A DNA stretch of 38,961 bases from Desulfobulbales bacterium. Its GTDB lineage: Bacteria > Desulfobacterota > Desulfobulbia > Desulfobulbales > JAGXFP01. The stretch covers positions 1-38,961 of the forward strand of contig JARGFN010000002.1 in NCBI GenBank assembly GCA_029210665.1, written 5' to 3'. Positions 15,337 through 38,957 of this stretch are shown in pieces. The notes below the pieces were generated by a model that did no database searches, had not been told where the DNA came from, and worked only from the letters and a program-made list of their open reading frames with translations. Every line of letters starts with the position of its first letter. Positions within the stretch are counted from its first letter, which is position 1. Made by a program: the position numbers and the translations under genes.

Positions 15337-15366
15337 TTGAATTCAGCATGGATGCCATGTTATCAT
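15337..15366 (+). promoter_or_regulatory. candidate sigma70 promoter for the plus-strand biosynthetic operon
   Basis: TTGAAT-N18-TATCAT lies 41-70 nt upstream of the KS start at 15407, just outside the R1 repeat. Pattern match only. Confidence 0.3.
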
Positions 15367-15406
15367 CTACCCGCAACACAGCTCCCCGAACCGGGGGGCC
15401 GTCCTG

Positions 15407-16654
15407 ATGCTTGCCGGCGCCAACCGGGTCGCGATAACCGGCATGGGCATTGTCTCCTGCCTGGGCCTGAACCGGGACGAAGTCAAGCAAGCCCTGCTCG
15501 AAGGGCGTTGCGGCCTGGAATTTCTTCCGGAACGCAAAAAACTCGGCTTTCAAAGCGGCCTGAGCGGGGTGATCAAAAATTTCGACTCCAAAAAAATCCT
15601 CGACCGCAAAAAGCGTAAAACCTTGCCGGAATTTGGCCTCTGGGCCTGGACCGCCATCGAAGAGGCCCTGGATCAGGCCGGCCTCGAACCGGACATCCTC
15701 CATGGCGATGTTGAGACCGGCATGGTCTTCGGTAACGATTCGTCGGCGGTTACCGCCGTCGAGCAAGTCGATATTCTGCGAAAAACCGGGGAGACCAGGA
15801 GCATCGGCAGCGGTCATATCTTCCGGCTCCTGAACAGCACCGTCACCCTGAACATCGGCACCATTCTCGGTTTGCACGGCCAGGTCTGGACGGTCAGCGG
15901 CGCCTGCGCCAGCGGCGCCATGGCGATCGGCCAGGGGGCCGAACTGATTGCAGCCGGCAGACAGAAAAGGGTGATCTGCGGCGGCGCCCAGGAGATCTCC
16001 TGGCAGTCGATGTGCAGCTTCGACACCCTGGCCGCCTTTTCCCGCCGCGAAAACGATCCGCCTTCCGCCTCCAGGCCCTTTGACCGGGACCGGGACGGAT
16101 TGGTGCCGAGCGGCGGGGCGGCGACGGTGATCCTCGAATCTTATGAGGAGGCCGAAAACCGGGGGGCGGTCATTCTGGGTGAGGTTATGGGCTACGGCAA
16201 CACCAGCGACGGCCACCATATCGTGATTCCCAGCGGCGAAGGTCTGGAAAGGGCCATGCGCCAGGCCATTGCCGATGCGGGCCTGAATCATGCCGACATC
16301 GATCTGGTCTTGGCCCACGCCACTTCGACCCCGGCCGGCGACGAAGCCGAGGGCCGGGCCCTCGCCAATATCTTCAAACCGAGTTCCACCGGTCCCGGTC
16401 CGCTCATCACCGCCACCAAGGCCTTAACGGGGCATGAGTTCTGGATGGCGGGCGCTTCCCAGGTCATCTACGGAATGCTGATGGCCGAAGACAAATTCGT
16501 GGTCGGCAACCGCAACCTCGAAAACCCCGACAACTCGATAAAGAACTTGCGTTTACCCACCCGGAATGTTTATACTAATTCCCTTTTTTTGCTCTGTAAC
16601 GCGGCAGGTTTCGGCGGCACCAACGCGTCCCTGGTAATAAAAAATCACCGGTGA
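15407..16654 (+). CDS. beta-ketoacyl-ACP synthase (KAS I/II-type), KS-1
   Basis: 415 aa. The N-terminus is 'VAITGMGIVSCLG'. The Cys-His-His triad motifs are 'VSGACASGAMAIG', 'LAHATSTPAGD' and 'ALTGHEFWMAGA', and the C-terminus carries 'GFGGTNASLVI'. Confidence 0.9.
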   Translation: MLAGANRVAITGMGIVSCLGLNRDEVKQALLEGRCGLEFLPERKKLGFQSGLSGVIKNFDSKKILDRKKRKTLPEFGLWAWTAIEEALDQAGLEPDILHGDVETGMVFGNDSSAVTAVEQVDILRKTGETRSIGSGHIFRLLNSTVTLNIGTILGLHGQVWTVSGACASGAMAIGQGAELIAAGRQKRVICGGAQEISWQSMCSFDTLAAFSRRENDPPSASRPFDRDRDGLVPSGGAATVILESYEEAENRGAVILGEVMGYGNTSDGHHIVIPSGEGLERAMRQAIADAGLNHADIDLVLAHATSTPAGDEAEGRALANIFKPSSTGPGPLITATKALTGHEFWMAGASQVIYGMLMAEDKFVVGNRNLENPDNSIKNLRLPTRNVYTNSLFLLCNAAGFGGTNASLVIKNHR

Positions 16655-16705
16655 TTTTCTCGGCGGCCCATTTCACCTGATCGGCAGTTTCATGAGGTTC
16701 ACCTT

Positions 16706-18226
16706 TTGTCTTCACGGAAGATCGACACCATTGTCATCGGCAGCGGCATAAGCGGCCTGACCGTTGCCGGATTGCTGGCCAAAAACGGCCGGCGAGTCGT
16801 TATCGTAGAGCGGAACCGGAAACCCGGCGGCGCCCTGAGACGTTTCACCAGGGACGGCATTCCGTTCGACATCGGCTTTCACTACACGGGCGGCCTCGGC
16901 CGGGGACAGATTCTCGATGTCCTCTGGAGATATCTGGGGGTGAGGCCCGAAATCACCCCGGTGCCGATGCATCCAGACGGCTACGATTATTTCAGATTCC
17001 GCGCATCGGGAACCGAGGTCAGGGCTTATTATTCGTACGAAAGGGCCGGGGAGCAGATGTGCGCGGTTTTCCCTGATGAAGCGGCCGGAATCGCCCGCTA
17101 TCTGGGGACGATCAAAAATATCTGCGGGAAAATTCCTTTTTACGACCTGGACCTGCCCTTGTCCCCTTTTCTGCGAGATTTTTTCAGTTCCCAGGACCGC
17201 CCCTTGCCCGAGGCGATCGCCTCAATGGTTAAAAACCCGGAACTGCAAGCGGTTCTGGCCGCTCCCGCCTTCCTTTACGGGGTGCCGCCGGCAAAGGCCG
17301 GTCTGACCATGCATGCGGCCGTGGCCCATAGTTATTATCAGGGCGCCTGGGGCATCCGGGGCGGCGGCCAGGCGGTAGTGGACGGTTTTCTGAAAACATT
17401 GACCGGGCATGGGGTAGAAATTCTCACCGGCCAAGGAGTGGAGAAAATCGAGGTCGGTAACGGTTGCATAAACGGCGTCACCCTCGCCGACCGTCGGCGG
17501 ATTCCGGCCGGGCAGGTGATATATACCGGCCACCCCGCCCATCTGCCCGATCTGGTTACGCCGGGAAGCTTCCGGCCGGCCTTTACTCATCGAATCAAGG
17601 GACTGGAAGATACGATTTCAATGTTTACGGTTTTCGGCAGGATGAACCGCCCTGCCGCTCTGCCGGCATTGGACCGGGCCAACCTGTACTGTATCAACCG
17701 GGGTTTCGACCTGATGGCTGATCCGGCGGCGGTCGGAAACGGCTCCGTGTTATTGACCGCACCGGGCCGTCGTGACCTGAATGCATTTGATGACGATAGA
17801 CGGAGCGGCGATGGAGTCATTCTGATGCGCCCGGCGAACTGGAGCGAAACGGCGAGGTTCTCCAGGGAAAACTCAAGGACACGGGGCGCCGGTTACCGGG
17901 AATGGAAAACCGCCGCCACAAAAAATTTAATCGAACGAGCCGCCGCCGGTTTCGGCGAGGGATGTCTTGGAATTGAGCCCCTGGCCGCGGGCTCGCCCTT
18001 GACCTTCAGAGATGAACTGGGCTCTCCGGCGGGGGGGATATACGGCGTGCAGCACAACCTGCAGCAATTCGTGGCCCGGGCCAGGACCAAGGTGCAAGGC
18101 CTGTACCTGAGCGGCCAGGGTTCCTTGATGACGGGGCTCCTCGGCGCCTCGATGGCAGGGCTGGTTACGGCCGGCGAAATCATGGGCCTCGAAGAGACCT
18201 GGGACAAGGTCAGAAAATGGCAGTGA
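16706..18226 (+). CDS. FAD/NAD(P)-dependent oxidoreductase, phytoene-desaturase (CrtI)-like family
   Basis: 506 aa with the dinucleotide fold 'DTIVIGSGISGLTVAGLLAKNGRRVVIVERNRKPGG'. Length and C-terminal block (GLYLSGQGSLMTGLLGA) fit COG1233-type enzymes. The start is TTG with a GAGG SD 8 nt upstream. Confidence 0.8.
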   Translation: MSSRKIDTIVIGSGISGLTVAGLLAKNGRRVVIVERNRKPGGALRRFTRDGIPFDIGFHYTGGLGRGQILDVLWRYLGVRPEITPVPMHPDGYDYFRFRASGTEVRAYYSYERAGEQMCAVFPDEAAGIARYLGTIKNICGKIPFYDLDLPLSPFLRDFFSSQDRPLPEAIASMVKNPELQAVLAAPAFLYGVPPAKAGLTMHAAVAHSYYQGAWGIRGGGQAVVDGFLKTLTGHGVEILTGQGVEKIEVGNGCINGVTLADRRRIPAGQVIYTGHPAHLPDLVTPGSFRPAFTHRIKGLEDTISMFTVFGRMNRPAALPALDRANLYCINRGFDLMADPAAVGNGSVLLTAPGRRDLNAFDDDRRSGDGVILMRPANWSETARFSRENSRTRGAGYREWKTAATKNLIERAAAGFGEGCLGIEPLAAGSPLTFRDELGSPAGGIYGVQHNLQQFVARARTKVQGLYLSGQGSLMTGLLGASMAGLVTAGEIMGLEETWDKVRKWQ

Positions 18227-19446
18227 ACAGGGTGGTCATAACCGGTCGCGGGGCGGTCTCACCCCTTGGGATCGGAGTTGCCGAGCTTATCGAAGCGGTC
18301 TGGCAGGGTCGTTCCGGCGTCAAGCTCATGGATGAGTGGCGGCAAATCAAGGGGATGCGGGCTCTCACTGCGGCCCCCGTCCCCAAGACCGATGCGAAAT
18401 CCCTATTACCCAGGTCAATGCGGAGAACCATGGGAGACATGGCCATCCATGCCACCCTCGCCGCCCGCGAAGCCGTGGAAGACGCCGGGCTTTCCGCCGA
18501 CCTTCTCGGCTCGGGACGGGTCGGCGTCGCCATCGGTTCGACCACCGGCAGCCCGGCGGCCTACGAAACCTTTTATGAAAAATTCCTTGCCGAACGTTCC
18601 ATCGAAGAGCTAAAATCCGGCTTCTTTTTCAAGATTATGAGCCACAGCTGCGCCGCCAATGTCTGCCTTGCCCTCGGTATTACCGGTGAGCAATGGTCGC
18701 CGGCCAGCGCCTGCAGTTCCTCGGCCCAGGCTATGGGTCTGGGCTACATGCTGATCAAGAGCGGTCGCCAGGATGTCGTGCTCTGCGGCGGAGCCGACGA
18801 AGTCCACCATTCGGTGACCATGGTTTTCGATGTCCTGAAAGCGGCTTCCCGCAACCATGCTCAACCCTTGGTCACCCCAAGGCCATTCGATATTGATCGG
18901 GACGGCGTGGTTTGCGGCGGCGGCGGCGGCATCCTGGTTCTGGAAAGTCTGGAAGGCGCGGAAGCGCGGGGCGCGAAAATCCATGGCGAAATTCTGGGAT
19001 TCGGTCATATTAACGATTGCAGCCATATCGCCAACCCTCATTCGAACAGCATGTCGGCCGCCATGCGGGCCGCCTTGCAGGAAGCGGGGGTTGCCGGAAG
19101 CGAAATAGACTATGTCAACGCCCATGCCACCGGCACCCCGCAAGGCGATATCGCCGAAGCCGGCGCCATACTTAAAACGGTCGGCAGTAAGGTGCCGGTC
19201 AGTTCTTTCAAGGGTCATATCGGCCATACCCTGGGGGCCGCCGGAGCGCTTGAAACGATCATAATGCTGGAAATTATGCACAGGCAGGAGATCATCCCCA
19301 CCCTGAACCTTGAAAATCCCGATCCGCAATGCGGCGCCATCGCCCTGCCTCGGGAAATTGTCCCGCGAAAGATTGACCTGATGATAAAAAACAACTTTGC
19401 CCTGGGCGGTGTCAACACCTCCCTGGTATTCCAGAGGTGGCATTAA
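18217..19446 (+). CDS. beta-ketoacyl-ACP synthase II-type, KS-2
   Basis: 409 aa carrying 'VVITGRGAVSPLG', 'PASACSSSAQAMG', 'NAHATGTPQGD', 'KGHIGHTLGAAGALE' and 'LGGVNTSLVF'. Its ATG overlaps the upstream stop (ATGGCAGTGA). Confidence 0.9.
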   Translation: MAVNRVVITGRGAVSPLGIGVAELIEAVWQGRSGVKLMDEWRQIKGMRALTAAPVPKTDAKSLLPRSMRRTMGDMAIHATLAAREAVEDAGLSADLLGSGRVGVAIGSTTGSPAAYETFYEKFLAERSIEELKSGFFFKIMSHSCAANVCLALGITGEQWSPASACSSSAQAMGLGYMLIKSGRQDVVLCGGADEVHHSVTMVFDVLKAASRNHAQPLVTPRPFDIDRDGVVCGGGGGILVLESLEGAEARGAKIHGEILGFGHINDCSHIANPHSNSMSAAMRAALQEAGVAGSEIDYVNAHATGTPQGDIAEAGAILKTVGSKVPVSSFKGHIGHTLGAAGALETIIMLEIMHRQEIIPTLNLENPDPQCGAIALPREIVPRKIDLMIKNNFALGGVNTSLVFQRWH

Positions 19447-19701
19447 ATGCTGACAGACAAGGAAATTCAGCAGCGGATAACCGAGGTTATCTCCGAGGAA
19501 TTCGAGCTTGAACCCTCCCGACTCGTTCCCGGCGCCACCCTCTACGATGATCTGGGCCTTGACAGTCTCGACGCCGTCGACATGGTAGTGGCACTGGAAA
19601 AATCGTTTGGCATCAAACTCGCCAATGAAGAAGCCATCAAAGCGGTCCGGACCATGGACGACCTTTGCCGGCTGATCATCAATCTCAAAAAAGAAAACTG
19701 A
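19447..19701 (+). CDS. acyl carrier protein, ACP-1
   Basis: 84 aa with the phosphopantetheine site 'LGLDSLDAVDMVVALE'. Its ATG directly follows the KS-2 TAA. Confidence 0.9.
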   Translation: MLTDKEIQQRITEVISEEFELEPSRLVPGATLYDDLGLDSLDAVDMVVALEKSFGIKLANEEAIKAVRTMDDLCRLIINLKKEN

Positions 19702-19711: not shown

Positions 19712-20530
19712 GTGAACCTGAACAAGTTTTTACTGAACATATACTACTGGCCGATGTTTCTTCTGGTAACCATTTTGGCTTTCCTGAGCGCGCCGCTCCT
19801 GCTGATCGGCAACCTGATGTTGCCCGGACATCCCATTGCCCGGACAATCCGGCAGGGTATCAGGATTTACGGCTGGGTGCTGATCCGGCTGGTGCCCTTC
19901 ATGGCGCCGGTCGTCCTCGAAGATCGCTCGGGCGGTTTCGAGGAACCGGTCATCTTCACTCCCAACCACAGCTCTTCCGCCGATCCCTATCTTTTCGGGC
20001 TGGTGCCGGTGGAAAACGCCTTTGTCACCTCCTGGCCTTTTCATATCCCCTTTTATAATTTTTTCATGCACCTGGCCGGCTATGTCAATTCGACCAGGGG
20101 GTGGCAACATGTCCAGAAAAAAGGCAGGGAATTGCTCGACTCAGGATGCTCGCTGATTATCTGGCCGGAGGGTCACCGCACCCGGACCGGCCGCCTGGGC
20201 AGATTCAAGAACGGCGCCTTTCGACTGGCCCTGGCCACCGGCAGACCGATTGTACCGGTCTGCATTATCGGCTCCCGCCGGGTGCTTCCCCCGGGCCGTT
20301 TTTTTCTGAGCCCGGCCCGGGTCAGGATCATCCTCCTGCCGACAATCACCCCGGCCGGCAAGGCCGACAACCCCGAGGACATAAAAAACCTGAAAGATAA
20401 ATCAAAAAAGTGCATAGACGAGGAACTGCAAAAACATCGGTCCAGCACGGCCGCTTCCGCGGCAAACCGGACCAGCCCATTATCATTTGCCGTCGGCCCC
20501 GGGAAAGAACCGGGCCGCAGCTGCTCCTGA
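19712..20530 (+). CDS. lysophospholipid/1-acylglycerol-3-phosphate acyltransferase (PlsC-like)
   Basis: It has an N-terminal TM segment, the HX4D motif 'NHSSSADP' and 'IIWPEGHRTRTG'. The start is GTG (alternative ATG at 19751). The C-terminal tail is low-complexity. Confidence 0.8.
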   Translation: MNLNKFLLNIYYWPMFLLVTILAFLSAPLLLIGNLMLPGHPIARTIRQGIRIYGWVLIRLVPFMAPVVLEDRSGGFEEPVIFTPNHSSSADPYLFGLVPVENAFVTSWPFHIPFYNFFMHLAGYVNSTRGWQHVQKKGRELLDSGCSLIIWPEGHRTRTGRLGRFKNGAFRLALATGRPIVPVCIIGSRRVLPPGRFFLSPARVRIILLPTITPAGKADNPEDIKNLKDKSKKCIDEELQKHRSSTAASAANRTSPLSFAVGPGKEPGRSCS

Positions 20531-20534
20531 ACCG

Positions 20535-21845
20535 ATGTCTGCTCGTTTCGACCTGAATAAAGCCCTTGCCTTCCGAACGGCGGACCCGGCTGAACTTGCC
20601 GATCGACAGAATCCCCTGCTGCAAGCCCATCTTCGCCAGGCCCTCAAAACCTCTTTTTACCAGGAGTTATTCGCCCGCATCGGCTGCCTTCCCGAGGAGA
20701 TCAACCTGGGGAACCTAACCTCGTTGCCGCTCACCTCCAGGCACGATGTCGAGGCGAACCCCGAAGCGTTTTTCGCCGTTCCCCCTGAAATGCAGGCTGA
20801 CCTGGCGCTGACTTCGGGATCGACCGGCGCTCCGGTTCTGGTTCCCTATACCGCCCTTGATCTGGAACGATTGGCCTTTAATGAGCGGATGAATTTTCAC
20901 GGGGCCGGGGTTAATAAAAATGATCGCTTCCTGCTGTGCGTGACCCTCGATCGCTGCTTTGTCGCCGGGCTCGCCTACTATACCGGTCTGGTCGGCCTCG
21001 GCGCTTCCTGTATCCGTAGCGGGCCGGGCCAGCCGGCCCGGCAATGGGAATTGATCGACCGCCTGCGCCCTTCGGGACTGGTCGGGGTTCCCTCTTTTCT
21101 TTTGAAAATGGCGCAATGGGGGAAAAGGCACGGGTATAACCCGGGGAAAAATGGTATAAGCTCCCTGGTTACGATCGGAGAACCGGTCCGGCGGGCCGAC
21201 AACTCCCTGACCCCCCTTGGTCGTGAACTCGAAGAAGCCTGGCATGGCCGGGTTTTTTCCTCTTACGGGGCCACCGAACTGGAAACGGCCTTCTGCGAAT
21301 GCACGGCCGCCGCCGGCGGCCATGTTCATCCGGAACTGATGATCGCCGAGATCGTCGACGAGGCAGGCAATTCCGTTAAACCCGGCGAACCGGGCGAAGT
21401 GGTGGTTACCCCACTGGGTGTCGAAGGTTTTCCGCTGGTCCGTTTCCGGACCGGGGATATCGCCCGCCTCCACACCTCTCCATGCCGATGCGGCTGGCGA
21501 ACCGCGCGACTCGGTGCGATCGAGGGACGCCTGGCCCAACGCCTCAAGGTCAAGGGCACCACCATTTACCCGGAAATGATCTTTCAGGCCCTGCAGGAAC
21601 TGCCGGAAATATCATGTTGTTATCTTGAAGTAAGGTCGGCCTATGATCTCTCCGACCAGATCCATATCGTTATCGGAATGGATGACCCGGCAACGGTTGA
21701 GCTCGGCCGAATCAGCGATCATCTCCAGGCCCGGCTGCGGGTCAAACCGGAAATAACCGTCCAGGCCAGGGATGTGGTCCAGGAGACCATGGAACAATCC
21801 GGCGGACGCAAATTAAAACGCTTTTTCGATTTTCGTGGTAAGTGA
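20535..21845 (+). CDS. adenylate-forming enzyme, phenylacetate-CoA ligase (PaaK)/F390 synthetase-like
   Basis: The AMP-binding P-loop 'LTSGSTGAPVLVPYT' and 'YGATELE' are present, and the ~437 aa size is typical of the PaaK-like family. The ATG at 20535 lies 4 nt after the upstream stop; the ORF-track start at 20487 overlaps the acyltransferase. Confidence 0.8.
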   Translation: MSARFDLNKALAFRTADPAELADRQNPLLQAHLRQALKTSFYQELFARIGCLPEEINLGNLTSLPLTSRHDVEANPEAFFAVPPEMQADLALTSGSTGAPVLVPYTALDLERLAFNERMNFHGAGVNKNDRFLLCVTLDRCFVAGLAYYTGLVGLGASCIRSGPGQPARQWELIDRLRPSGLVGVPSFLLKMAQWGKRHGYNPGKNGISSLVTIGEPVRRADNSLTPLGRELEEAWHGRVFSSYGATELETAFCECTAAAGGHVHPELMIAEIVDEAGNSVKPGEPGEVVVTPLGVEGFPLVRFRTGDIARLHTSPCRCGWRTARLGAIEGRLAQRLKVKGTTIYPEMIFQALQELPEISCCYLEVRSAYDLSDQIHIVIGMDDPATVELGRISDHLQARLRVKPEITVQARDVVQETMEQSGGRKLKRFFDFRGK

Positions 21846-21850
21846 CAGGT

Positions 21851-22891
21851 ATGAAATGTTTTGGTGAACACTGGGGACTTGAGTTTTCCCAAGAAGAAAT
21901 TGCCGCGGCCCTGGCCAGAGACGGGTTGCTTTCCATGGAACTGGAACTCTCCAGGGCCTGCAACCTGCGTTGTATCTATTGCTATGCCGAGTCGGGCGTG
22001 CCGATGGCCAACGAGCTCAGCCTCGATGAAATTTTCAGGGCCGTCGACCAGGCCGTGGAGCTGGGCGCCCGGAAAATCATCATCCTCGGCGGCGGCGAAC
22101 CGACCCTTTACAAGGACCTTTTCAAGGTAATCGATTACATCCAGGCCAAAAAGGTCGAGGTCGATGTCTTCACCAACGGCATGCTGATCGACCGGGACAA
22201 GGCCGAGGCGCTCTACGCGCGCAAGGTCTCGGTGGTGGTCAAGATGAACAGCCGCGACCCGGAGATCCAGGATATGCTGGCCGGCCACCCCGGCGCTGCC
22301 GCCGCCATCAACAAAGGCTTAAAGGCCCTGATGGACGCCGGTTATCCCGACGAGGACCATACCCTGGGCATCGAAACCATCATCTGCCGGCAGAACTACG
22401 CCGAGCTGGCCGACCTGTGGATCTGGGCGCGAAAGCAGAACATCATCCCCTATATCGAGATGATGACCCTCCAGGGCCGGGCCACGGAACATCCCGATCT
22501 TGAAGTGCCGATCAATGAAGTAAAGACCCTCTTTGAGAAGCTGGCCGAGATCGACCGGGAGATGTTCGACAGCCACTGGACCCCCCACCCGCCCCTGGCC
22601 GCCTCCCAATGCGCCCGGCATGAATATTCCTGCACGGTAACCGCCAACGGCGACGTCCAGCCCTGTCCGGGGGTCAGCGTCCCCGCCGGCAATATCCGGG
22701 AGCAGCCCCTGGCCGAGATCCTCAAGAAAAGCACCCCGATCCAGGAGCTTCGCAATATCAGGAAGATAATCAAGGGACGCTGCGGAGAATGCCGGTTCGG
22801 CGATTACTGCTACGGCTGCCGCGGCCACGCCTATCAGGTTACCGGCGATTACCTGGCCGAGGATCCCCTTTGCTGGCTGGACCATAAATAG
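21851..22891 (+). CDS. radical SAM enzyme with C-terminal SPASM-type auxiliary-cluster domain
   Basis: The CX3CX2C motif is 'CNLRCIYCYA'. The C-terminus is Cys-rich ('CARHEYSCTVTANGDVQPCPG' and 'GRCGECRFGDYCYGCRGHAY'). An alternative GTG at 21842 overlaps the upstream stop (GTGA). Confidence 0.85.
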   Translation: MKCFGEHWGLEFSQEEIAAALARDGLLSMELELSRACNLRCIYCYAESGVPMANELSLDEIFRAVDQAVELGARKIIILGGGEPTLYKDLFKVIDYIQAKKVEVDVFTNGMLIDRDKAEALYARKVSVVVKMNSRDPEIQDMLAGHPGAAAAINKGLKALMDAGYPDEDHTLGIETIICRQNYAELADLWIWARKQNIIPYIEMMTLQGRATEHPDLEVPINEVKTLFEKLAEIDREMFDSHWTPHPPLAASQCARHEYSCTVTANGDVQPCPGVSVPAGNIREQPLAEILKKSTPIQELRNIRKIIKGRCGECRFGDYCYGCRGHAYQVTGDYLAEDPLCWLDHK

Positions 22892-25379: not shown

Positions 25380-25404
25380 GCCGTTCCCGCGATCGCCCGG
25401 CGGC

Positions 25405-31290: not shown

Positions 31291-31677
31291 TCAGCCCCTT
31301 ACTCTGAAAATAATTGTGCCGGCGGCAACCACCGCTTTCTGTTTTTTCAGCTTGAAAACCGCCTGCCACTCCTCAGCGACCTTTTCAAGCTCGACCCGGA
31401 TATTGATTCTTTCGTCGGGCATGATCATCCCCTTGAACTTCAGTCTGCCGGTTCGGACAATTTCCAGATCGGTTTCGAGAAGATCGGCGGCGATCAACCT
31501 CACGAAAACCAACTGGATCACGGCGGGCAGCACCGGCTGACCGGGGAAATGGCCGGAGAAGGGGGGGAAATCGGCCGGGCAGCAAAATTCGGCGGAAGCG
31601 GTCCGGCGATCCCGATCAAACCGCCGGGTTTCGACAACCTTTCTGAATAGGTCTAAGGAATTATCGCTGCATTTCAT
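31291..31677 (-). CDS. FabA/FabZ-like hot-dog dehydratase, DH-1 (His present)
   Basis: 128 aa with 'FSGHFPGQPVLPAV', matching the FabZ 'GHFPxxPxxPG' catalytic-His motif. Confidence 0.75.
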   Translation of the reverse strand: MKCSDNSLDLFRKVVETRRFDRDRRTASAEFCCPADFPPFSGHFPGQPVLPAVIQLVFVRLIAADLLETDLEIVRTGRLKFKGMIMPDERINIRVELEKVAEEWQAVFKLKKQKAVVAAGTIIFRVRG

Positions 31678-32293: not shown

Positions 32294-34698
32294 GGTTTTT
32301 CCTCCCGGTTCCCGGATGAAGCGAGCAGGGCCGGGGTTACAAGAAGCGCCGTCGGCCAGGCCGCGCCGATGCCGACCAGTACCGTTACGCCCAGGGCATG
32401 GAGGGCCGGGTGTTCGGCAAAGCCCAGGACGCCGAAACCGGACAGGGTGCTGACCGCGCAGATCGATACCGCCGAAAGGGTCCGGTGGTCGATTCCGCCC
32501 AGGCAGGCCCGGACCATAAAAATCCCGTAGTCGACACTGAGGCCGATGACCATTATTCCCATCAGGGCATGCATGATATTAAGCTCGCCCCCGGTAAAAG
32601 CGGCAAAAAGGGCCATCGCCGCCAGCGCCGAAGTAACCGGGGCCAGCACACCTAGAACCGGCCGCGGACTCCTGAAAAACAGGGCGCAGATCATGATCAC
32701 CAGCAAGGCGGCAACCGTTGAGAGCTTGACGATATCGCGCTTCAGATCTTCCTCCACCTGCCGCCGCCAGCGGCTGTTCGACAATACCGTTACCCCGGCG
32801 ATCTCACTGCTCAAACGCTCGAGAACCGCCTTGTTATCCGGGTTGTCTGGAACAATGGTCGCCGCCAGAAAGGTTTCGACGCTCTCGCCCTTGCCGATGG
32901 CGCCCTTCTCGGAAAACTCCCTGAACAGGGAATAGATAAAGGGACGCAAGGGCCCGTCGAGAAAATCACCGGGCGCCAAACTTTCCGGCTCACTTTCCAG
33001 CCAATCGAGAAAGGGCTGGAAGGCGGCGGGGGTGAAACCGGTTGCAATCGCGGCCTGTCGCAGCTCCCTTTCGAAGCCGGCCAGCCCGGTCTTCTGGAAC
33101 TCACGCCACCGGGCCAGATTTTCAACCTGACGGTCGGGACCGGGCAGCAGCACCGCCAAGGATTGGACCCCGCTGGATTTCTCCTGCCGGGCCAGGGTTT
33201 GGTAAACCCGGTCGTTAAGGTTCAAAACCGTGTCCTGTTCCCGACCGACGGCAACGACAAAGGCCTGCTCCCCCTCCCCTCCCCAAATCCCCTTAAAAGC
33301 CCGCTCATCGTCGCTGACCGCCTGGACGGGAACATCGAGGGCGCGGAGATCTCCGTTGTAACGCAAGGAGGGCCAGACCGAGAGACCGGCGGCCAGAAGA
33401 AGCAGCCAGATCGTAAGTTTCAGCCACCGCTGATGGCTCCCCTGCCCAAACAATCGCATCTCCTTTACAAACAGCGGCCCATTCGGGGTAAAGACGCCGC
33501 TTTGGGCGCCGAGGGGCGGCGCCAGCAGCCAGGCAAGGACGAAGGCCCACGTCAGGCCGATAATGCCAAGCAGGGCCATTTGGCGGTGGGCCGCCACACT
33601 GGACAGCAGCAGCACGGCAAATACCGCAATGGTGGTAAAAAAGGCCATAAACAGCGAGCCGCGCAAATCACCGGAGATTTTCCCGGTGGAATGAATGCCC
33701 CTGGCACCCAGATAGATATGAACGGCAAAATCAACTCCGATCCCCAGAAGAACGATCCCGAAACCAAGGGCCATGGCACTGACCTTGCCGTAAAAACCGG
33801 CGAGCAGCGCAACTGCCGGAGGAGCGGCCAGAAAGGGGATCGCCACCAGAAGCAGCGCCCGCCGATCCCGCAAAAACAGAAGCAGAAAAGTGACCAGGGC
33901 CACGATCGCGACCGGCAACAGCCGGGCCAGATCGCTCCTGATCGTCCCGGCATTGGCCAGGGTGTGGGGCAGCGGCCCGACAATTCTGGCCGTGACGCGC
34001 TCCTTCAAGGAACGGGCCAGGGCCTCTTCAAGCCGCTGATTAACCAGAACGGCATTGCCGGAAACGGTCAGCGGGATGGCGCTCTCGGCCCAGATCAGAC
34101 AGTGACGGCCATCGTTGCTGATGAAAAAGCCATCATGAATATTCAGGCGCAGCGCACCGCGCAGGGTTGAGAGTTTTTCGAGAATTACAGAAGTAAAGCC
34201 CAGGGGGTCCCCTTGGATCTGCCGCTTCATGGCCAGGCCGGCCGGGCTGTTCAAGGCCTGGAAGGCCTCCGCGAGCTTTTCCCGTAACACTTCCGGCGCC
34301 ATAAGCGCTTCGAAACGACGCAGATCGCCGTCGTCGGCAAGGACCGGCAGATATTGCCTTAATTCGGCGGCCAGGCGGAATTGATAACCCTCCGGCAGTT
34401 GGTAGAAAACCTCGGCAAAAAGCGGGCTCAAGGAGAGGTCTTCGCCCAGGGCCCGGGCACTGGCCAAAAGCCCCGAATCGGGGACGGGATCGGGATCGGG
34501 GGCGGATGGAAGTTCGAGGGAGATAAAAATCCGGTTGACCATGCCCAATTGCTGCAACAACTTGAAATCACCCTGCAACGATGTACCGGGCAACATATCC
34601 AGGGCATCTTCGCCAAGCTCAATCCGCATGGAAAAATAGATCCCGGCCAGGGTAACAAGCAACACGACGATTTTTATTATCAGGGAGCGGGAAATCAT
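32290..34698 (-). CDS. MMPL-family (COG4258-type) exporter
   Basis: 802 aa with two multi-TM blocks separated by soluble domains. It is flanked by the LolA and DUF3261-like genes. Confidence 0.85.
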   Translation of the reverse strand: MISRSLIIKIVVLLVTLAGIYFSMRIELGEDALDMLPGTSLQGDFKLLQQLGMVNRIFISLELPSAPDPDPVPDSGLLASARALGEDLSLSPLFAEVFYQLPEGYQFRLAAELRQYLPVLADDGDLRRFEALMAPEVLREKLAEAFQALNSPAGLAMKRQIQGDPLGFTSVILEKLSTLRGALRLNIHDGFFISNDGRHCLIWAESAIPLTVSGNAVLVNQRLEEALARSLKERVTARIVGPLPHTLANAGTIRSDLARLLPVAIVALVTFLLLFLRDRRALLLVAIPFLAAPPAVALLAGFYGKVSAMALGFGIVLLGIGVDFAVHIYLGARGIHSTGKISGDLRGSLFMAFFTTIAVFAVLLLSSVAAHRQMALLGIIGLTWAFVLAWLLAPPLGAQSGVFTPNGPLFVKEMRLFGQGSHQRWLKLTIWLLLLAAGLSVWPSLRYNGDLRALDVPVQAVSDDERAFKGIWGGEGEQAFVVAVGREQDTVLNLNDRVYQTLARQEKSSGVQSLAVLLPGPDRQVENLARWREFQKTGLAGFERELRQAAIATGFTPAAFQPFLDWLESEPESLAPGDFLDGPLRPFIYSLFREFSEKGAIGKGESVETFLAATIVPDNPDNKAVLERLSSEIAGVTVLSNSRWRRQVEEDLKRDIVKLSTVAALLVIMICALFFRSPRPVLGVLAPVTSALAAMALFAAFTGGELNIMHALMGIMVIGLSVDYGIFMVRACLGGIDHRTLSAVSICAVSTLSGFGVLGFAEHPALHALGVTVLVGIGAAWPTALLVTPALLASSGNREEKP

Positions 34699-34704: not shown

Positions 34705-35364
34705 CTAGCGAAGTCGGCATTCAGAGAAGAGAACGTCCTTGAGGGCAAGATTGCGGCGGTAATTCGAGAAATAGAGCAGGGTGCGATCCCCCCCGGGTTC
34801 ATTGATTTCAACTTCAAGGGGCTGCAGGTGATCGGGATCGAAAACCACCTTTATCCTGCCGATATACGATGCCGTCTCCTTGCTCCGCGGCGAAAAAACC
34901 AGGGCCGGGCCGGGCAGAAGCTTAAAATCGAAGTCATCGCGCAGTTCCCGGTATGAACCGCTGCTCCAGGCCCAGAGCTGGGACGCCACCATCCGCATGA
35001 CGGGATCTCCATCAAGGTTGAATTTTGTGACCGGTCCCCGGTCTGTGCATTTCAGCCCCCTATTGCCGTTTAAGACGATCACCGAGGGCAGCGGATCAAC
35101 AAACTCCCAGCGCAGCTTATCGGGCCGGCGCAGACTTAATTGCCCGGAAAACTCAACCGGTCCGGCAAAGATGGCCAGTTGTTTTATCTGGGTGAAATCG
35201 CATGAAAAAGAATCGATCGCGGCGGAGCTCTCCTCCACCTTTTGCAGAAAATTCTCCAGAGCGCCGCCGCTCTCAACGCCAAAAGCCAACCCCGGCGGAA
35301 ATACCCCCGCCAGACTGAAAAAAATGAACAGCACCCCCATACGCAACAGCGGGAGATACTTCAC
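34705..35364 (-). CDS. LolA-family periplasmic lipoprotein/lipid carrier
   Basis: It has a signal peptide and 'FSCDFTQIKQLAIFAGPVEFSGQLSLRRPDKLRWEF', typical of LolA. The GTG start overlaps the DH-2 stop (GTGA). Confidence 0.8.
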   Translation of the reverse strand: MKYLPLLRMGVLFIFFSLAGVFPPGLAFGVESGGALENFLQKVEESSAAIDSFSCDFTQIKQLAIFAGPVEFSGQLSLRRPDKLRWEFVDPLPSVIVLNGNRGLKCTDRGPVTKFNLDGDPVMRMVASQLWAWSSGSYRELRDDFDFKLLPGPALVFSPRSKETASYIGRIKVVFDPDHLQPLEVEINEPGGDRTLLYFSNYRRNLALKDVLFSECRLR

Positions 35365-35816
35365 TTCTCCTCCCAGGCCTTAATCTCGCCGCCGGCCAAA
35401 AGCTCTCCCCTCTTATTAAAAACCGTACCCGCCATTACGCTCACCGGCCCGAAGTCGAAATTTTTTACAATTTCCACCCGCAGTTTTTGTCCCGCCTCAC
35501 CCCGGCCCGGCCAACTGAAATTTTCGATACCGACCAGCAAGCCGCGACCGGGTTTTTCACCGTCAACCAGACCATCAAAGCTGTTAACAGCCGCCATGGC
35601 CTGGGCGACCAGTTCAATAAAATATTCAGGCAGCACCGCGCCGTCCTGCCCCACAAAAAAACCCTCGGTGGGCGCAGTGGCCTCGACCAGGGAAAAATTC
35701 GCCAACCGATCCCTTTTGACCAGGCGTTCGATAACCAGCATGGGCGGCCGCTGGGGGACCAGGCCAACGGCTGCGCAAGGCAAAGCGGGAACCGGAATGT
35801 TTTCGTTAATCTTCAC
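35361..35816 (-). CDS. FabZ-like hot-dog protein, DH-2 (catalytic His replaced)
   Basis: 151 aa. 'LVPQRPPMLVIERLV' aligns with FabZ 'LPHRYPFLLVDRV'. 'FFVGQDGAVLPEYFIELVAQAMA' aligns with FabZ '[23 protein letters not shown]'. Gln sits where the catalytic His would be, and the Glu is retained. Confidence 0.7.
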   Translation of the reverse strand: MKINENIPVPALPCAAVGLVPQRPPMLVIERLVKRDRLANFSLVEATAPTEGFFVGQDGAVLPEYFIELVAQAMAAVNSFDGLVDGEKPGRGLLVGIENFSWPGRGEAGQKLRVEIVKNFDFGPVSVMAGTVFNKRGELLAGGEIKAWEEK

Positions 35817-35834: not shown

Positions 35835-36563
35835 TCAAATATAAAGCCCGCCATTAACGCTCAGCACCTGGCCGGTTATGTAACCGGCCCCGTCGCTCAT
35901 CAGGAAGTCGACCGCCGCGGCCACCTCCTCCGGTTTACCGACCCGCCCGAGCGGCACCCCTGCAAGCATTTTATCGAGGGGCAAGCCCTCGATCATTTCG
36001 GTGTCGATCAGTCCCGGCGAAACCACGTTGACCAGGATATTGCGTTTCGCCACCTCCCTCGCCAGGGCCTTGGCCGCGGCGATCATCCCGCCCTTGGCCG
36101 CCGCGTAATTGAATTGCCCGGCCTGGCCGGTTTCTCCGGTAGTGGAGGCAATGGCGACGATCCGGCCCCGGCGGGCGGCGATCATCGACTTGACGATCAA
36201 CCTGCCGACCAGAAAGAAACCGGTCAGATGGACGTTCAGGACCAGATCCCAATCCTCCCGCCGCATCATGGCCAACAGGGAATCCCTGGTGATCCCGGCA
36301 TTATGGACCAGTCCGTAAGGAGTTTCTTCATTTAAAAGCGGCTCAAGCGCCCTGTTCATCGCCTCTTCATCGGCCACATCGAAGGGAACGACCACGCATT
36401 TACGCCCCAGGGCTTCAATCCGGCCGGCAACCGCCGCGGCCCCATCGTGATCGGACCGGTAGTTCAGCCAGATATCATAACCGCTTTCGGCAAGACGCAC
36501 GGCGACGGCGGCGCCGATCCCCTTGCTGGCGCCGGTTACTAATATAGGGGCGGATTCGGACAT
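35835..36563 (-). CDS. 3-oxoacyl-ACP reductase (FabG-like SDR)
   Basis: The motifs 'ILVTGASKGIG', 'NAGI', the catalytic 'NYAAAKGG' (YxxxK) and 'GQVLSVNGG' are present. Confidence 0.9.
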   Translation of the reverse strand: MSESAPILVTGASKGIGAAVAVRLAESGYDIWLNYRSDHDGAAAVAGRIEALGRKCVVVPFDVADEEAMNRALEPLLNEETPYGLVHNAGITRDSLLAMMRREDWDLVLNVHLTGFFLVGRLIVKSMIAARRGRIVAIASTTGETGQAGQFNYAAAKGGMIAAAKALAREVAKRNILVNVVSPGLIDTEMIEGLPLDKMLAGVPLGRVGKPEEVAAAVDFLMSDGAGYITGQVLSVNGGLYI

Positions 36564-36590: not shown

Positions 36591-37766
36591 TCAGTAGGTA
36601 CGCAGGGTCTTTATCGCATAACCGCGAACTTTCCTGTTTTTAGCGTCCTTGGCGATTTTCTGGATAGTATCCTTGTATTGCGGCAAGACAGACGCCCCAA
36701 GCGCCTTGACCATCCAGGCCACGGCATCGGAATGATTGCGGTCGCGGGGTTTTTCGTTATAAATTTCCAGGAGAAGTTTTTCAAGGACATCGAGAACCGC
36801 GGGATCCTTCACGCCATCCTTGATAATCTTTTTCGCCCCCCACACCTTATCCTTCAGATTACTCGACTGCAACTTCGCTATATAGTCAGCCGACTTAAGC
36901 GGGGCATTCCGAGGCGGGGGCCTGTATCCCGCGGATGGCGGCACATAGACCTCTTCCTTTATCGGGGTCAGAGGGCCGGAGATGCTCTTGACCATCTGCC
37001 CGACCGCGATGGCAACGTCCTCCTCCTCCTCGATAATGGTGGCCCTGGCGATCTTCTGGGAGACTCCGATGATCTTCAACTTGCCGGACTGGATCAATTC
37101 GACGTCGAGAACCTCGCCGGTCTTGGGATGTTTGACCACCGACCCCTCCTTGAAAACCATGAATTCCATATCGGGTTTTATGCCGGTCCTCTTACCTAAA
37201 TCGATGGAGACGGAATCGTCATTCCGCGCGACGATATAGCCTTCCAGGGGGAAGTTCTTGATGATCTTGTCGGACATCCTGACAATGAGGCTCTGCAAAC
37301 TGGTGGAGGCGGTACTTTTAACGTTCTCGGCCGCGATTATCGAGGCGGTCTCGACATCGATGATCCGGGCATTCACCTCGAGAACATCCTGCAGCTTCAT
37401 GACCGAGCCGGAAATAATGATCTTCACCCCGAGGATCTTGCCGAGCTGGGTGGCGCTGCTCTCGTCGACAATCCCGCTGATCCCCATCTTCTGCTCATTC
37501 ATGATCTTGCTGAGCATCGCCCGCTCCACCACATCAAACCGGCCTTCCTTGACCAGAGCGGTAATAAACCATTCGGCAACGATCGTGCCCATATCCTCGG
37601 TTTCGTATCCCTCACCCTGCAACTCGAAATCGAGAACCGCTATCTTGGTCTTCTTGAAATCGGCCTCGGCCGAAAACGGTGCCGCCACTATCAACATTAG
37701 CCCCATTACCAGGGCAAGAATCCTTTTCACCGCAAATCTCCTGTTATTCATTGTTTTCACTGCCAT
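36591..37766 (-). CDS. secreted CsgG/LpoB/FlgO-like domain protein with beta-rich middle domain and HEAT-like C-terminus
   Basis: It has a signal peptide (LMLIVAAPFSAEA). The block 'KIAVLDFELQG...FITALVKEGRFDVVERAMLSKIMNEQ...LGKILGVKIIISGSV...VNARIIDVETASII' is typical of the CsgG/TolB-N-like fold family. The C-terminus is made of helical repeats. It lies 27 nt upstream of fabG, with an AAGAGG SD between them. Confidence 0.55.
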   Translation of the reverse strand: MAVKTMNNRRFAVKRILALVMGLMLIVAAPFSAEADFKKTKIAVLDFELQGEGYETEDMGTIVAEWFITALVKEGRFDVVERAMLSKIMNEQKMGISGIVDESSATQLGKILGVKIIISGSVMKLQDVLEVNARIIDVETASIIAAENVKSTASTSLQSLIVRMSDKIIKNFPLEGYIVARNDDSVSIDLGKRTGIKPDMEFMVFKEGSVVKHPKTGEVLDVELIQSGKLKIIGVSQKIARATIIEEEEDVAIAVGQMVKSISGPLTPIKEEVYVPPSAGYRPPPRNAPLKSADYIAKLQSSNLKDKVWGAKKIIKDGVKDPAVLDVLEKLLLEIYNEKPRDRNHSDAVAWMVKALGASVLPQYKDTIQKIAKDAKNRKVRGYAIKTLRTY

Positions 37767-37772
37767 ATCCGG

Positions 37773-38882
37773 TTATTGGAGCTTCGCCTTTATCTGACTG
37801 CCGCCGATATCGATAACCGACAGCTTTTTGCCCATGACCGCCTGACCGTCAATCATGTCGGCAAAGGCATCGCCATTGCCGCGAAAAACCACGGACAGTT
37901 TCAGTTGCCCGTTACCGAATCCCCGTTTGCTGACCGAGGAAACCTCAAGCCCCTTGATCAGGTTCTGAACTGCCTTCTGGGTCTTGTAGTCGGGGACATT
38001 GGCCACCGTCAATTCAAAGGTCATGCCGTTATTGACCATGTCCTGGAACGAGGCGACAATCTTCTCGAAAAGCTTATCGTCCATGAGCTTGCGGGCCGCT
38101 TTTTCGGCGGCCTGCGCCTTGGCCGCTTCGAGGTCGATATGGGCGGCCGCGCCGGTGGCCGATTTGGAGGCGATTATCCGGGCATTCGAGCAATTGACCA
38201 CCCTGGCGGTGATACTGGCCTGGCCCGATATCATCCCCACATCACCTAAAAGCTTATTATTCGCCGTACTCTTGACCACCTTGCCGACGATAACGTATTC
38301 AGCGCCGTTGGCGGCGCCGAGCTGGGCGGCGGCGACGGGATCGCCTTCGGTCGCCTTGCGGATCAATGCCTCGTCGCGGTCCATCAGGGCCGCCACCGCG
38401 GCCGCGTCGACCAGCTCGAATTCCTTTTCATTCAGATAATCGAGGATCGCGGTTTCGGCCGAGTTGCCGTTCTCCTCGCGGATCAAGACCATCATCCGCG
38501 GTTTGTCCATCGATTCCAGGAGGATTTTCAGGGCAACCAGATCCTCTTTGATCGCGGCCATAGAAACCACGGCGCTGATCTTGACCTGGAAGGTATCGCC
38601 GTCCCGGGATTCGCTCAGAACCTTGTAGCTTTTCACCGCCCCGACCGTCCTGGTCAGGATCATGTCTTTCCGGAGCATGAAATTTTCCACTTCGGTTTCG
38701 GAAATCAGGAAGGTGCCGATGCCGCTGCTGACCGCCTCGCGCTTGGCCTTGAGCAGGGCGTCATCTTTCGAGATCCCGTAGCCCTCGGCCTCGACGGTGA
38801 TATCGCCTTCAATGGCAAGAGCAAGGACCGGTAGTGCCAGAAAATAGATCATGGCCGCAATTGCAAAAATTCTTCTCTTCAC
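37773..38882 (-). CDS. secreted LPP20/FlgT-like domain protein
   Basis: The GTG start has a GGGAGGA SD, and a signal peptide (FLALPVLALA) follows. The N-terminal 'GYGISKDDALLKAKREAVSSGIG' resembles LPP20/FlgT_N. The central part resembles the same TolB-N-like fold (EYVIVGKV...ITARVVNCSNARII). Functional assignment is weak. Confidence 0.5.
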   Translation of the reverse strand: MKRRIFAIAAMIYFLALPVLALAIEGDITVEAEGYGISKDDALLKAKREAVSSGIGTFLISETEVENFMLRKDMILTRTVGAVKSYKVLSESRDGDTFQVKISAVVSMAAIKEDLVALKILLESMDKPRMMVLIREENGNSAETAILDYLNEKEFELVDAAAVAALMDRDEALIRKATEGDPVAAAQLGAANGAEYVIVGKVVKSTANNKLLGDVGMISGQASITARVVNCSNARIIASKSATGAAAHIDLEAAKAQAAEKAARKLMDDKLFEKIVASFQDMVNNGMTFELTVANVPDYKTQKAVQNLIKGLEVSSVSKRGFGNGQLKLSVVFRGNGDAFADMIDGQAVMGKKLSVIDIGGSQIKAKLQ

Positions 38883-38927
38883 TCTATCCTCCCACGCGTT
38901 TCCCGTGATTAAAACAAGTAGATACGG

Positions 38928-38957
38928 ATTAATGTCCCCTTACAGCGAATTTGTCAA
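38928..38957 (-). promoter_or_regulatory. candidate sigma70 promoter heading the 14-gene minus-strand operon
   Basis: The minus strand reads TTGACA-N18-ATTAAT, 46-75 nt upstream of the GTG at 38882. Pattern match only, and the window ends at 38961. Confidence 0.35.

Follow-up and report, generated by a model that had tools for sequence, protein, structure and literature searches.

A Desulfobulbales lipid gene cluster combining aryl-polyene-type and dialkylresorcinol-type modules, with a B12-binding radical SAM enzyme in the position of DarA

The locus and the question it raises

What kind of product is made by a gene cluster that unites fatty acid synthesis-like enzymes, three radical S-adenosylmethionine (SAM) enzymes and export proteins? 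This question is raised by contig JARGFN010000002.1 (assembly GCA_029210665.1), a stretch of 38,961 nucleotides (hereafter 'the window', meaning this whole stretch) that comes from a Desulfurivibrionaceae (Desulfobulbales) genome as judged by best protein matches. A preliminary description, made from the letters alone, had presented an elaborated aryl polyene (APE)-like cluster and had listed an ATP-binding cassette (ABC)-2 exporter and B12-binding radical SAM enzymes among the genes that do not fit such a cluster. The ABC-2 pair, the second acyl carrier protein (ACP2), the 'KAS III' and one B12-binding radical SAM enzyme are no odd extras, however; they form a dialkylresorcinol (DAR) or dar module, as found in arcuflavin and flexirubin clusters. 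The best reading, in which we place moderate confidence, is that the locus directs the synthesis of a flexirubin/arcuflavin-like polyene-resorcinol outer-membrane lipid of anaerobes.

The open reading frame map and Pfam/NCBIfam scans bear out two convergent operons with 23 genes, at 15407-25379 on the plus strand and 38882-25867 on the minus strand. Their junctions are tight, measuring 51, -10, 0, 10, -44, -4, 28 and 15 nt in the plus operon and 14, 6, -113, 0, -4, 7, 31, -4, 6, -4, 18, 27 and 6 nt in the minus operon (negative values are overlaps). The plus operon reads ketosynthase (KS) 1, a CrtI-family enzyme, KS2, ACP1, a PlsC-type acyltransferase, a FlxY/PaaK-like ligase, a SPASM radical SAM enzyme, B12-binding radical SAM enzyme #1 and DarB. 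The first half of the minus operon consists of two CsgG-like secreted proteins, FabG, a 151-aa hot-dog protein, LolA, an MMPL-like RND exporter and a 194-aa lipoprotein, and the second half of a FabA/ApeI-like dehydratase, a 4HBT thioesterase, KS3, B12-binding radical SAM enzyme #2, an ABC ATPase, an ABC-2 permease and ACP2. Ortholog lengths (434-441 aa for the ligase) suggest that the ligase and the ABC ATPase probably begin further downstream than called, at ATG 20535 and TTG 28259, respectively, which would abolish both long overlaps.

A dialkylresorcinol module within the cluster

The genes that meet at the point of convergence are as follows.

22920..24215, plus strand: B12-binding radical SAM enzyme #1 (PF02310 and PF04055), directly upstream of DarB
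24231..25379, plus strand: DarB/StlD-family cyclase ketosynthase, 382 aa (NF005293, 563 bits against a cut-off of 450)
25867..26148, minus strand: ACP2, DarC-like (PP-binding, 20.9 bits)
26163..27482, minus strand: ABC-2 permease, DarI-like (domain match and synteny with the dar cluster)
27489..28352, minus strand: ABC ATPase, DarF-like (start probably TTG 28259)
28240..29709, minus strand: B12-binding radical SAM enzyme #2, HpnJ/BchE-like (domain and family-model matches)

The protein encoded at 24231-25379, previously taken for a KAS III, proved to be a StlD/DarB cyclase ketosynthase instead of FabH. It matches the sequence of the StlD crystal structure 5gk0 over its full length (411 bits, E = 3.6e-122), whereas FabH structures reach only about 50 bits. 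Residues C125, H302 and N337 are invariant in an alignment of 37 diverse family members, representatives drawn from an exhaustive search. A carboxy-cyclohexanedione results when DarB enzymes condense a beta-ketoacyl with a 2-enoyl thioester, and DarA, a biochemically demonstrated decarboxylative aromatase, turns it into the dialkylresorcinol (PMC6836626).

In Azoarcus BH72, the dar cluster comprises darA, darB, darD, darE, darF, darI, darC and darJ, where darE is BtrH-like, darF codes for an ABC ATPase, darI for a permease, darC for an ACP and darJ for a KS (PMC3949708). Radical SAM enzyme #1, DarB, an ACP, ABC-2, an ABC ATPase and BtrH_N/DUF4872 are found together in four loci (L001, L003, L004 and L091), which belong to Desulfuromonas versatilis, a Syntrophotaleaceae genome, a further Desulfobacterota genome and Desulfurivibrio alkaliphilus. 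Because these loci match the Azoarcus dar set, with radical SAM enzyme #1 placed before DarB, the ABC-2 pair, ACP2, the 'KAS III' and radical SAM enzyme #1 of the window form a DAR module. ACP2, the ABC-2 permease and the ATPase sit across the spacer from DarB. The exporter pair and an ACP co-occur with DarB irrespective of which partner gene precedes it (see below), and orthologs of ACP2, which scores 53.6 bits on PRK09184 (below the cut-off of 70), accompany DarB in many loci of both types. Orthologs of radical SAM enzyme #2 (52-95% identity) adjoin either radical SAM enzyme #1/DarB or the genes that we call module A below. We had also weighed KS3 as an equivalent of DarJ and rejected this assignment, given that its adjacency to the thioesterase is kept in loci without DarB, as for a member of the APE-type core.

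Some DarB homologs (P0144, P0154, P0157, P0158, P0167, P0176, P0186 and P0195) are 613-868 aa long and have an extra C-terminal region. A fusion (Rosetta-stone) test of P0154 (868 aa) and P0144 (633 aa) found no similarity to radical SAM enzyme #1 or DarA.

A radical SAM enzyme takes the place of DarA next to DarB

One genome per species was scanned for DarB with 10-kb flanks, which gave 86 loci, and the 23 window proteins plus two DarA sequences were compared by tblastn with all of them. Since DarA is not represented by an NCBIfam model and matches nothing in Pfam beyond a faint FMN_red signal, it was identified by position and mutual homology; the two queries are the genes upstream of DarB in Pseudomonas brassicacearum and Dechloromonas. 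With these queries, nothing was found in the window at E <= 1e-3.

DarA lies immediately upstream of DarB on the same strand in 44 of the 86 loci. An ortholog of radical SAM enzyme #1 (48-90% identity, gaps mostly 7-60 nt) occupies exactly this position in another 36, and no locus has both (Fisher p = 3e-21, uncorrected for phylogeny). Two loci lack either partner despite 10 kb of upstream sequence, and four have too little upstream sequence to judge. The partnerless pair are L047 (8362-11143), which has a divergent SPASM radical SAM enzyme (45% identical to that of the window) together with BtrH-like, ACP, KS and ABC genes, and L075 (8613-11119) from Sulfurovum, where an unrelated permease gene is located upstream of DarB.

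The radical-SAM-type loci belong to Desulfuromonadales, Geobacteraceae, Desulfobulbales, Desulfobacterales and Syntrophobacteraceae, with one Nitrospirae locus. Those of the DarA type come mostly from Proteobacteria, Campylobacterota and Verrucomicrobia, along with single loci from Streptomyces and Leptospirales and a few from Desulfobacterota. When DarB sequences are arranged in a neighbour-joining tree, those of the radical-SAM type group into one clade, inside which four DarA-type loci and one partnerless locus are nested; the partner has therefore been exchanged more than once while DarB changed little.

From this pattern, we infer a non-orthologous displacement, wherein radical SAM enzyme #1 would take over or redirect the DarA step. 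Chemically, an oxidative decarboxylation is within what a radical SAM enzyme could plausibly do. On the evidence of gene neighbourhoods, the apparent recurrent replacement of DarA by a B12-binding radical SAM enzyme is the genuinely new element of the cluster. Our literature search found no description of a radical SAM-DarB pairing, and to our knowledge the known DAR and APE pathways all use DarA.

An aryl-polyene-type core without enoyl reductase

The remainder of the minus operon holds a polyene-type synthesis and export set, which is listed here from the spacer outwards.

29710..30816, minus strand: KS3, short FabF-like ketosynthase (triad retained; in relatives, the final gene of the APE-type core)
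30813..31283, minus strand: 4HBT thioesterase in an ApeK-like position (family-model matches and synteny)
31291..31677, minus strand: FabA/ApeI-like dehydratase (FabA, 30.8 bits)
31709..32293, minus strand: predicted lipoprotein, 194 aa, in the ApeN position (lipobox)
32290..34698, minus strand: MMPL/RND-like exporter (weak MMPL match; HAE3/HpnN-like)
34705..35364, minus strand: LolA-like carrier (PF03548, 62 bits)
35361..35816, minus strand: ApeP-like dehydratase, 151 aa, assigned by orthology (own match weak, 14.6 bits)
35835..36563, minus strand: FabG/FlxB-like ketoreductase (FlxB, 272 bits)
36591..37766, minus strand: secreted CsgG/FlgO-like protein (CsgG, 62 bits; only in the closest relatives, L085 and L088)
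37773..38882, minus strand: CsgG1, secreted, sub-threshold CsgG/DUF6175 match (16 bits; 85% identical ortholog in L088)

The preliminary description had called this an APE-like type II system lacking enoyl reductase and equipped with an adenylating enzyme, an acyltransferase and a LolA/MMPL/lipoprotein trio, and this assessment holds. Pfam/NCBIfam scans of the window proteins show no classical enoyl reductase domain. The ketoreductase and the ApeI/ApeP-type dehydratase pair thus occur without enoyl reductase, a combination expected of APE clusters. The order FabG-ApeP-LolA-MMPL-lipoprotein-ApeI-thioesterase-KS is conserved in Desulfobulbales.

Several individual assignments needed qualification. 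Of the two hot-dog dehydratases that had been named, the FabA/ApeI-like one is supported directly (27.4 bits on the ApeI-like model, cut-off 28.5; ApeI structure 6qsr at E = 1e-3). The second is ApeP-like through its orthologs, which carry PF22817; its own best matches among solved structures, FabZ-type dehydratases, are not significant (E = 0.06). In the export trio, LolA is clear (96 bits on LolA2_flexi, below the cut-off of 125) and the MMPL match is weak, the named orthologs of the exporter being from Desulfobulbales. The third member has a lipobox and a position that is kept in relatives, but it matched no Pfam or NCBIfam family, including the DUF3261 family to which it had been likened. 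As for the two CsgG-like secreted proteins, one is unambiguous and CsgG1 falls below the threshold.

Domain scans bear out the absence from the window of a glycosyltransferase, a methyltransferase and a COG4648-type membrane protein. Because GT2/DUF2062 is present in the relatives D. alkaliphilus, Desulfurivibrio sp. D14AmB and Desulforhopalus singaporensis, the absence of the glycosyltransferase is lineage-specific. The cluster also appears to continue past the window end, since L088 has a KS and a 266-aa chain-length factor (CLF)-like gene directly upstream of CsgG1, a place that lies beyond the end of the window.

Genes of the plus operon upstream of the dar module

Seven further genes precede radical SAM enzyme #1.

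15407..16654, plus strand: KS1, FabB-like ketosynthase (PF00109/PF02801; Cys-His-His kept)
16706..18226, plus strand: CrtI/RetSat-family flavin adenine dinucleotide (FAD) enzyme (Amino_oxidase, 71 bits)
18217..19446, plus strand: KS2, FabF-like ketosynthase of PRK09116 type (triad kept)
19447..19701, plus strand: ACP1 (PP-binding; DSL motif)
19712..20530, plus strand: PlsC-type acyltransferase with an HX4D motif, NHSSSAD (PF01553, 70 bits)
20487..21845, plus strand: FlxY/PaaK-like adenylating ligase (start probably ATG 20535)
21842..22891, plus strand: SPASM radical SAM enzyme, AhbD/NirJ-like (PF04055 and PF13186)

The enzyme inventory given earlier is otherwise confirmed. All three FabB/F-type ketosynthases retain Cys-His-His (read by eye), both ACPs carry the DSL serine, and CxxxCxxC is found in the one SPASM and two B12-binding radical SAM enzymes (likewise read by eye). 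FabG, the 4HBT thioesterase, the PaaK/FlxY-like ligase, the PlsC-type acyltransferase, the CrtI-family flavoprotein and the ABC-2 permease and ATPase were all matched. An Rfam scan of the window matched no family, cobalamin riboswitches included.

The solved structure nearest to KS1 is FabB (276 bits), and its ortholog in D. alkaliphilus is 63% identical. Orthologs of the CrtI-like enzyme, which scores 102 bits on crtI_fam (cut-off 238), have 42-83% identity among the top 120 matches, and those that are named are all from Desulfobulbales or other Desulfobacterota. The JGI label of these orthologs is retinol 13,14-reductase (retinol-saturase type), and the window enzyme could be a desaturase, a saturase or an isomerase. 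The ligase reaches 407 bits on the FlxY model NF053551, below the cut-off of 520. The SPASM enzyme scores 161 bits on the AhbD model, also below cut-off, and its orthologs (45-84% identity) are located near DarB or within module A.

Three separable modules in related genomes

Comparison with related genomes indicates that Desulfobulbales share a conserved supercluster for a lipid or pigment, of which the locus is a rearranged version composed, as far as gene order allows us to judge, of three separable modules. Module A consists of KS1, the CrtI-like enzyme, KS2, ACP1, the PlsC-type acyltransferase, the FlxY-like ligase and the SPASM radical SAM enzyme. Module B is made up of DarB, ACP2 and the ABC-2 exporter, with radical SAM enzyme #1 in the DarA position. 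Module C comprises FabG, the ApeP-like and ApeI-like dehydratases, the thioesterase, KS3, LolA, MMPL and the lipoprotein. Radical SAM enzyme #2 accompanies module A or adjoins DarB. Related genomes show synteny of the APE-type core with the radical SAM, CrtI-like and ABC genes, on which the preliminary description had made its hypothesis depend, although the modules are separable. Our searches brought up no characterised cluster with the same gene set.

Of the relatives represented by a long contig, L088 is the nearest. The minus operon is found there complete and with its gene order unchanged, at 65-96% identity. Identity to the window is 90-96% for KS3, radical SAM enzyme #2, the ABC ATPase, ABC-2, ACP2, DarB, radical SAM enzyme #1, the SPASM enzyme and the thioesterase, but falls to 65-75% for LolA, MMPL, the lipoprotein and both dehydratases. 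The CsgG-like pair is confined to the closest relatives of the window.

In D. alkaliphilus AHT2, modules B and A are contiguous and continue into C. The order begins with BtrH-ABC-ABC2-ACP, followed by DarB and radical SAM enzyme #1 on the opposite strand, then radical SAM enzyme #2-KS1-CrtI-KS2-ACP-PlsC-ligase-SPASM, and after this PagL, a 194-aa protein, a B12-binding protein, a B12-binding radical SAM enzyme, a glycosyltransferase and LpxL. The CrtI-to-SPASM module of D. singaporensis is contiguous with the APE-type core, with no DarB nearby. Both in this species and in D14AmB, the genes ahead of the core block are those for ACP-KS-CLF, an LpxL-type acyltransferase, GT2/DUF2062 and a B12-binding radical SAM enzyme. 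Module B adjoins a KS/CLF/PagL block in Desulfuromonadales. An MMPL-centred scan of metagenome contigs returned three short loci only and was of little use.

Likeness to known systems

Flexirubin (Chitinophaga, Flavobacterium) and arcuflavin (Azoarcus BH72) consist of an aryl-polyene acid esterified to a dialkylresorcinol (PMC3992019, PMC3949708). The window has in common with their clusters a DarB-type ketosynthase, a dedicated ACP, an ABC exporter pair, a FlxY-like ligase, a FlxB-like ketoreductase, hot-dog dehydratases, LolA, an exporter and an acyltransferase, and likewise holds polyene and DAR gene sets in one neighbourhood. In favour of this kinship, the ligase, the ketoreductase and LolA have their best family-model matches among flexirubin-type models (FlxY, FlxB and LolA2_flexi). 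Unlike them, it has a B12-binding radical SAM enzyme where DarA would be, lacks a tyrosine ammonia-lyase or chorismatase, a methyltransferase, a glycosyltransferase and a BtrH-like gene, and adds two further radical SAM enzymes and the CrtI-like flavoenzyme. Its host is also a strict anaerobe, unlike the flexirubin and arcuflavin hosts.

The APE clusters of Proteobacteria were reportedly described by Cimermancic in 2014 and Grammbitter in 2019, and this comparison draws on their general features and on the Pfam ApeI and ApeP families. Shared features are a reductase-less set of ketosynthase, ketoreductase and dehydratase, ApeI-like and ApeP-like dehydratases, a 4HBT thioesterase, an adenylating enzyme, an acyltransferase and the order LolA-MMPL-lipoprotein. 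The window differs in that its KS/CLF pair would lie outside it and that no equivalents of ApeA, ApeB or ApeJ are found inside, and it goes beyond APE clusters in its FabB-like ketosynthase, CrtI-like enzyme, radical SAM enzymes and DAR module.

A third comparison concerns the clusters of Rattray et al., who in 2009 found anammox clusters to be syntenic with clusters of Desulfotalea, Geobacter and Pelobacter that share radical SAM enzymes, phytoene-dehydrogenase-like and phenylacetyl-CoA-ligase-like proteins, a glycosyltransferase and a new membrane protein (PMC2649909). Apart from the glycosyltransferase, these gene types, along with fatty acid synthesis paralogs, link the Rattray clusters to the window, and Desulfotalea psychrophila belongs to the same order as the window's host. 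The window lacks a radical SAM enzyme of the TIGR04072 (rSAM_ladder_B12) family and a glycosyltransferase, both of which occur in its relatives, as well as an LpxL-type acyltransferase and PagL, and it has the CsgG-like pair. The DarB module was not recognised in that study (PMC2649909). Likened by gene descriptions, the supercluster is probably the kind of cluster that was found to be syntenic with the anammox 'ladderane' clusters. Judged by its genes, the cluster thus seems to combine known kinds, APE-type and DAR-type, in a family that was probably first noticed in 2009.

A proposed pathway and the alternatives

For a flexirubin/arcuflavin-like polyene-resorcinol lipid, a pathway can be proposed as follows. 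The FlxY-like ligase would activate or load an aromatic or other acid starter, and a KS/CLF pair, FabG and the ApeI-like and ApeP-like dehydratases would build a conjugated polyene acyl-ACP without enoyl reduction. DarB would condense beta-ketoacyl and 2-enoyl thioesters, supplied as fatty-acyl intermediates on ACP2, to a carboxy-cyclohexanedione. Radical SAM enzyme #1 would then carry out the DarA step, a decarboxylative aromatisation to the resorcinol, or steer the intermediate towards a different ring product. The resorcinol may be linked to the polyene acid in the manner of flexirubin and arcuflavin, or the two may be anchored through the PlsC-type acyltransferase, and the ABC-2 pair and LolA/MMPL/lipoprotein would export the product to the outer membrane. 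The CrtI-like enzyme, the SPASM enzyme and radical SAM enzyme #2 are presumed to be tailoring enzymes.

A number of observations weigh against this reading. With respect to the ring, most class B radical SAM enzymes are methylases, and radical SAM enzyme #1 has its best model match in the hopanoid C-3 methylase HpnR (164 bits). The AhbD-like SPASM enzyme would chemically be the more natural oxidative decarboxylase, which makes it an alternative candidate for the DarA step, and a SPASM enzyme is the sole redox neighbour of DarB in L047. DarA is found in the anaerobes Desulfatitalea, Desulfocapsa and Sulfurospirillum; because some anaerobes carry DarA, oxygen independence is not an obvious reason for its replacement, and we have downgraded the idea of an anaerobic replacement of an oxygen-requiring DarA. 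With respect to the polyene, no CLF was matched and no KS/CLF pair was found in the window, nor was a tyrosine ammonia-lyase or chorismatase, so that an aryl starter is conjectural, and the flexirubin-specific NCBIfam models were all matched below their cut-offs. In addition, L004 has module B by itself, and in D. singaporensis modules A and C are found without it. Because modules B and A/C are found separately, the polyene and resorcinol products might not be joined. No member of the supercluster has a known product.

A bolder version of the polyene-resorcinol proposal, which we offer tentatively, is that radical SAM enzyme #1 is a new cobalamin-dependent decarboxylative aromatase or redirector, that the supercluster makes an undescribed polyene-resorcinol lipid of the outer membrane in sulfur-cycling anaerobes, and that the tailoring radical SAM enzymes share ancestry with those suspected in ladderane formation. 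If this is true, D. alkaliphilus would provide a cultivable non-anammox system for working out ladderane-suspect chemistry.

A competing explanation, unlikely in our view, is that the three radical SAM enzymes and the CrtI-like enzyme C-methylate, cross-link or cyclise the chain of an aryl-polyene lipid, which is then linked to a lysolipid and exported, with no role for a resorcinol. It gains from D. singaporensis, where orthologs of the SPASM enzyme and radical SAM enzyme #2 are found with module A and no DarB is nearby, from the further TIGR04072 radical SAM enzyme inside the APE-type core of relatives, and from the presence of a PlsC-type acyltransferase. However, radical SAM enzyme #1 adjoins DarB in each of the 36 loci that have it, even in L004, where no KS genes are nearby, and the dar module accounts for DarB, ACP2 and the ABC-2 pair.

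Less probable still is an oxygen-independent route to polyunsaturated fatty acids or hydrocarbons through the FabB-like and FabF-like ketosynthases, a CrtI-like desaturase and radical SAM enzymes, as proposed by Rattray et al. for Desulfotalea (PMC2649909). KS1 is FabB-like, the CrtI-family gene lies between two ketosynthases, and D. psychrophila makes polyunsaturated hydrocarbons and has a similar cluster (PMC2649909). An aryl-type ligase, a thioesterase, LolA/MMPL export and a DarB module would nonetheless be needless for bulk membrane fatty acids, and the retinol-saturase naming leaves open the direction of the CrtI-like reaction. It also counts against this route that polyunsaturated hydrocarbons in other bacteria come from Pfa or Ole genes.

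Ladderane biosynthesis is still unsolved, and genome-mining papers report 'ladderane' calls in Desulfobacterota. A ladderane-type pathway to cyclobutane lipids, akin to anammox Cluster I, is nevertheless very improbable here and largely refuted for the window. The link raised in the preliminary description survives as a family-level relation through the synteny reported in the literature (PMC2649909) and through gene types that are similar, namely a B12-binding radical SAM enzyme, two ketosynthases, a phytoene-dehydrogenase-like protein and an ACP; it fails for the window itself with respect to TIGR04072. On this model (cut-off 360), the two B12-binding enzymes of the window score only 49.7 and 93.1 bits, whereas radical SAM enzymes of 448 aa in D. 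alkaliphilus and 454 aa in D. singaporensis reach 607 and 583 bits, respectively. Anammox clusters pair FabF with a catalytically dead FabF (a KS/KS-mut pair), unlike the window, where none of the three ketosynthases has a mutated triad. No protein named as anammox is among the top 120 matches to the CrtI-like enzyme, and no ladderanes were found in Desulfotalea (PMC2649909). A link to anammox through solved structures was likewise tried and rejected, the nearest structures to KS1 and KS2 being FabB and generic FabF-like proteins and those matched by the ApeP-like protein not being significant.

Ahead of the TIGR04072 radical SAM gene, a protein of about 420 aa is encoded in the relatives L091 (17651-18922) and L092 (15115-16374). 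This protein has a B12-binding domain and weak matches to radical SAM models, and it may be a degenerate partner subunit.

Finally, the notion that these are housekeeping fatty acid synthesis genes is scarcely credible: FabG does clear one FabG equivalog cut-off, with 286 bits where 273 are required, but KS1 (343 bits on the FabB model, cut-off 630) and KS2 fall far under the FabB/FabF cut-offs, ACP1 fits NF003757 (78 bits, cut-off 65) and not AcpP, the window lacks FabD, FabH, FabI and FabZ, and the genes are embedded among export, radical SAM and DarB genes in an arrangement that is conserved as a cluster, so that model cut-offs and gene context leave the KS/ACP/dehydratase set outside housekeeping synthesis.

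The convergent spacer and the flanking genes

25380..25866, no strand: convergent spacer with a 108-nt hairpin and, on the minus strand, a T8-tailed terminator hairpin

The spacer between the operons is 487 nt long and strongly structured, as had been noted (z = -5.2 for the first 241 nt). A terminator hairpin at 25726-25757, with its T8 tail, serves the minus operon. A nearly perfect nested hairpin of 108 nt (25405-25512) lies just past the darB stop codon, and its arm sequence occurs once within the window. The spacer of L088 keeps the terminator part and lacks about 210 nt beside the darB stop (about 25380-25590, hairpin included). The hairpin region looks like a lineage-specific insertion on this comparison.

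Elsewhere in the window, a second lipid-export-like set at 961-5707 (minus strand) comprises a 433-aa protein with no family match, a LolA_like protein (PF17131, 180 bits) and an 874-aa RND transporter of the MMPL/sterol-sensing-domain type. It is followed at 7476-12986 (minus strand) by genes in a row for a polyprenyl synthetase, a 701-aa protein with no family match and a 722-aa U32 peptidase-family protein. EpmA-like and EF-P genes at 13108-14722 form a flank common to the window and L002, a locus from a Desulfobulbaceae relative. In L002, a HemN-like radical SAM gene (955-2322) lies between EF-P and KS1, and its place in the window is taken by only about 680 nt of non-coding sequence.

Implications

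Dialkylresorcinols and aryl-polyene pigments are widespread membrane antioxidants and signals. By analogy with reports on xanthomonadins and dialkylresorcinols, our guess is that the product may give protection from oxidants at oxic-anoxic interfaces. The 'ladderane' calls made by genome-mining tools in Desulfobacterota resolve into three ordinary modules and are hence interpretable. That a B12-binding radical SAM enzyme has repeatedly taken the place of DarA in Desulfobacterota suggests a new enzyme activity and a new branch of this lipid family in anoxic sediments, and the cultured and sequenced relatives Desulfurivibrio alkaliphilus AHT2, Desulforhopalus singaporensis and Desulfuromonas versatilis make the product testable.

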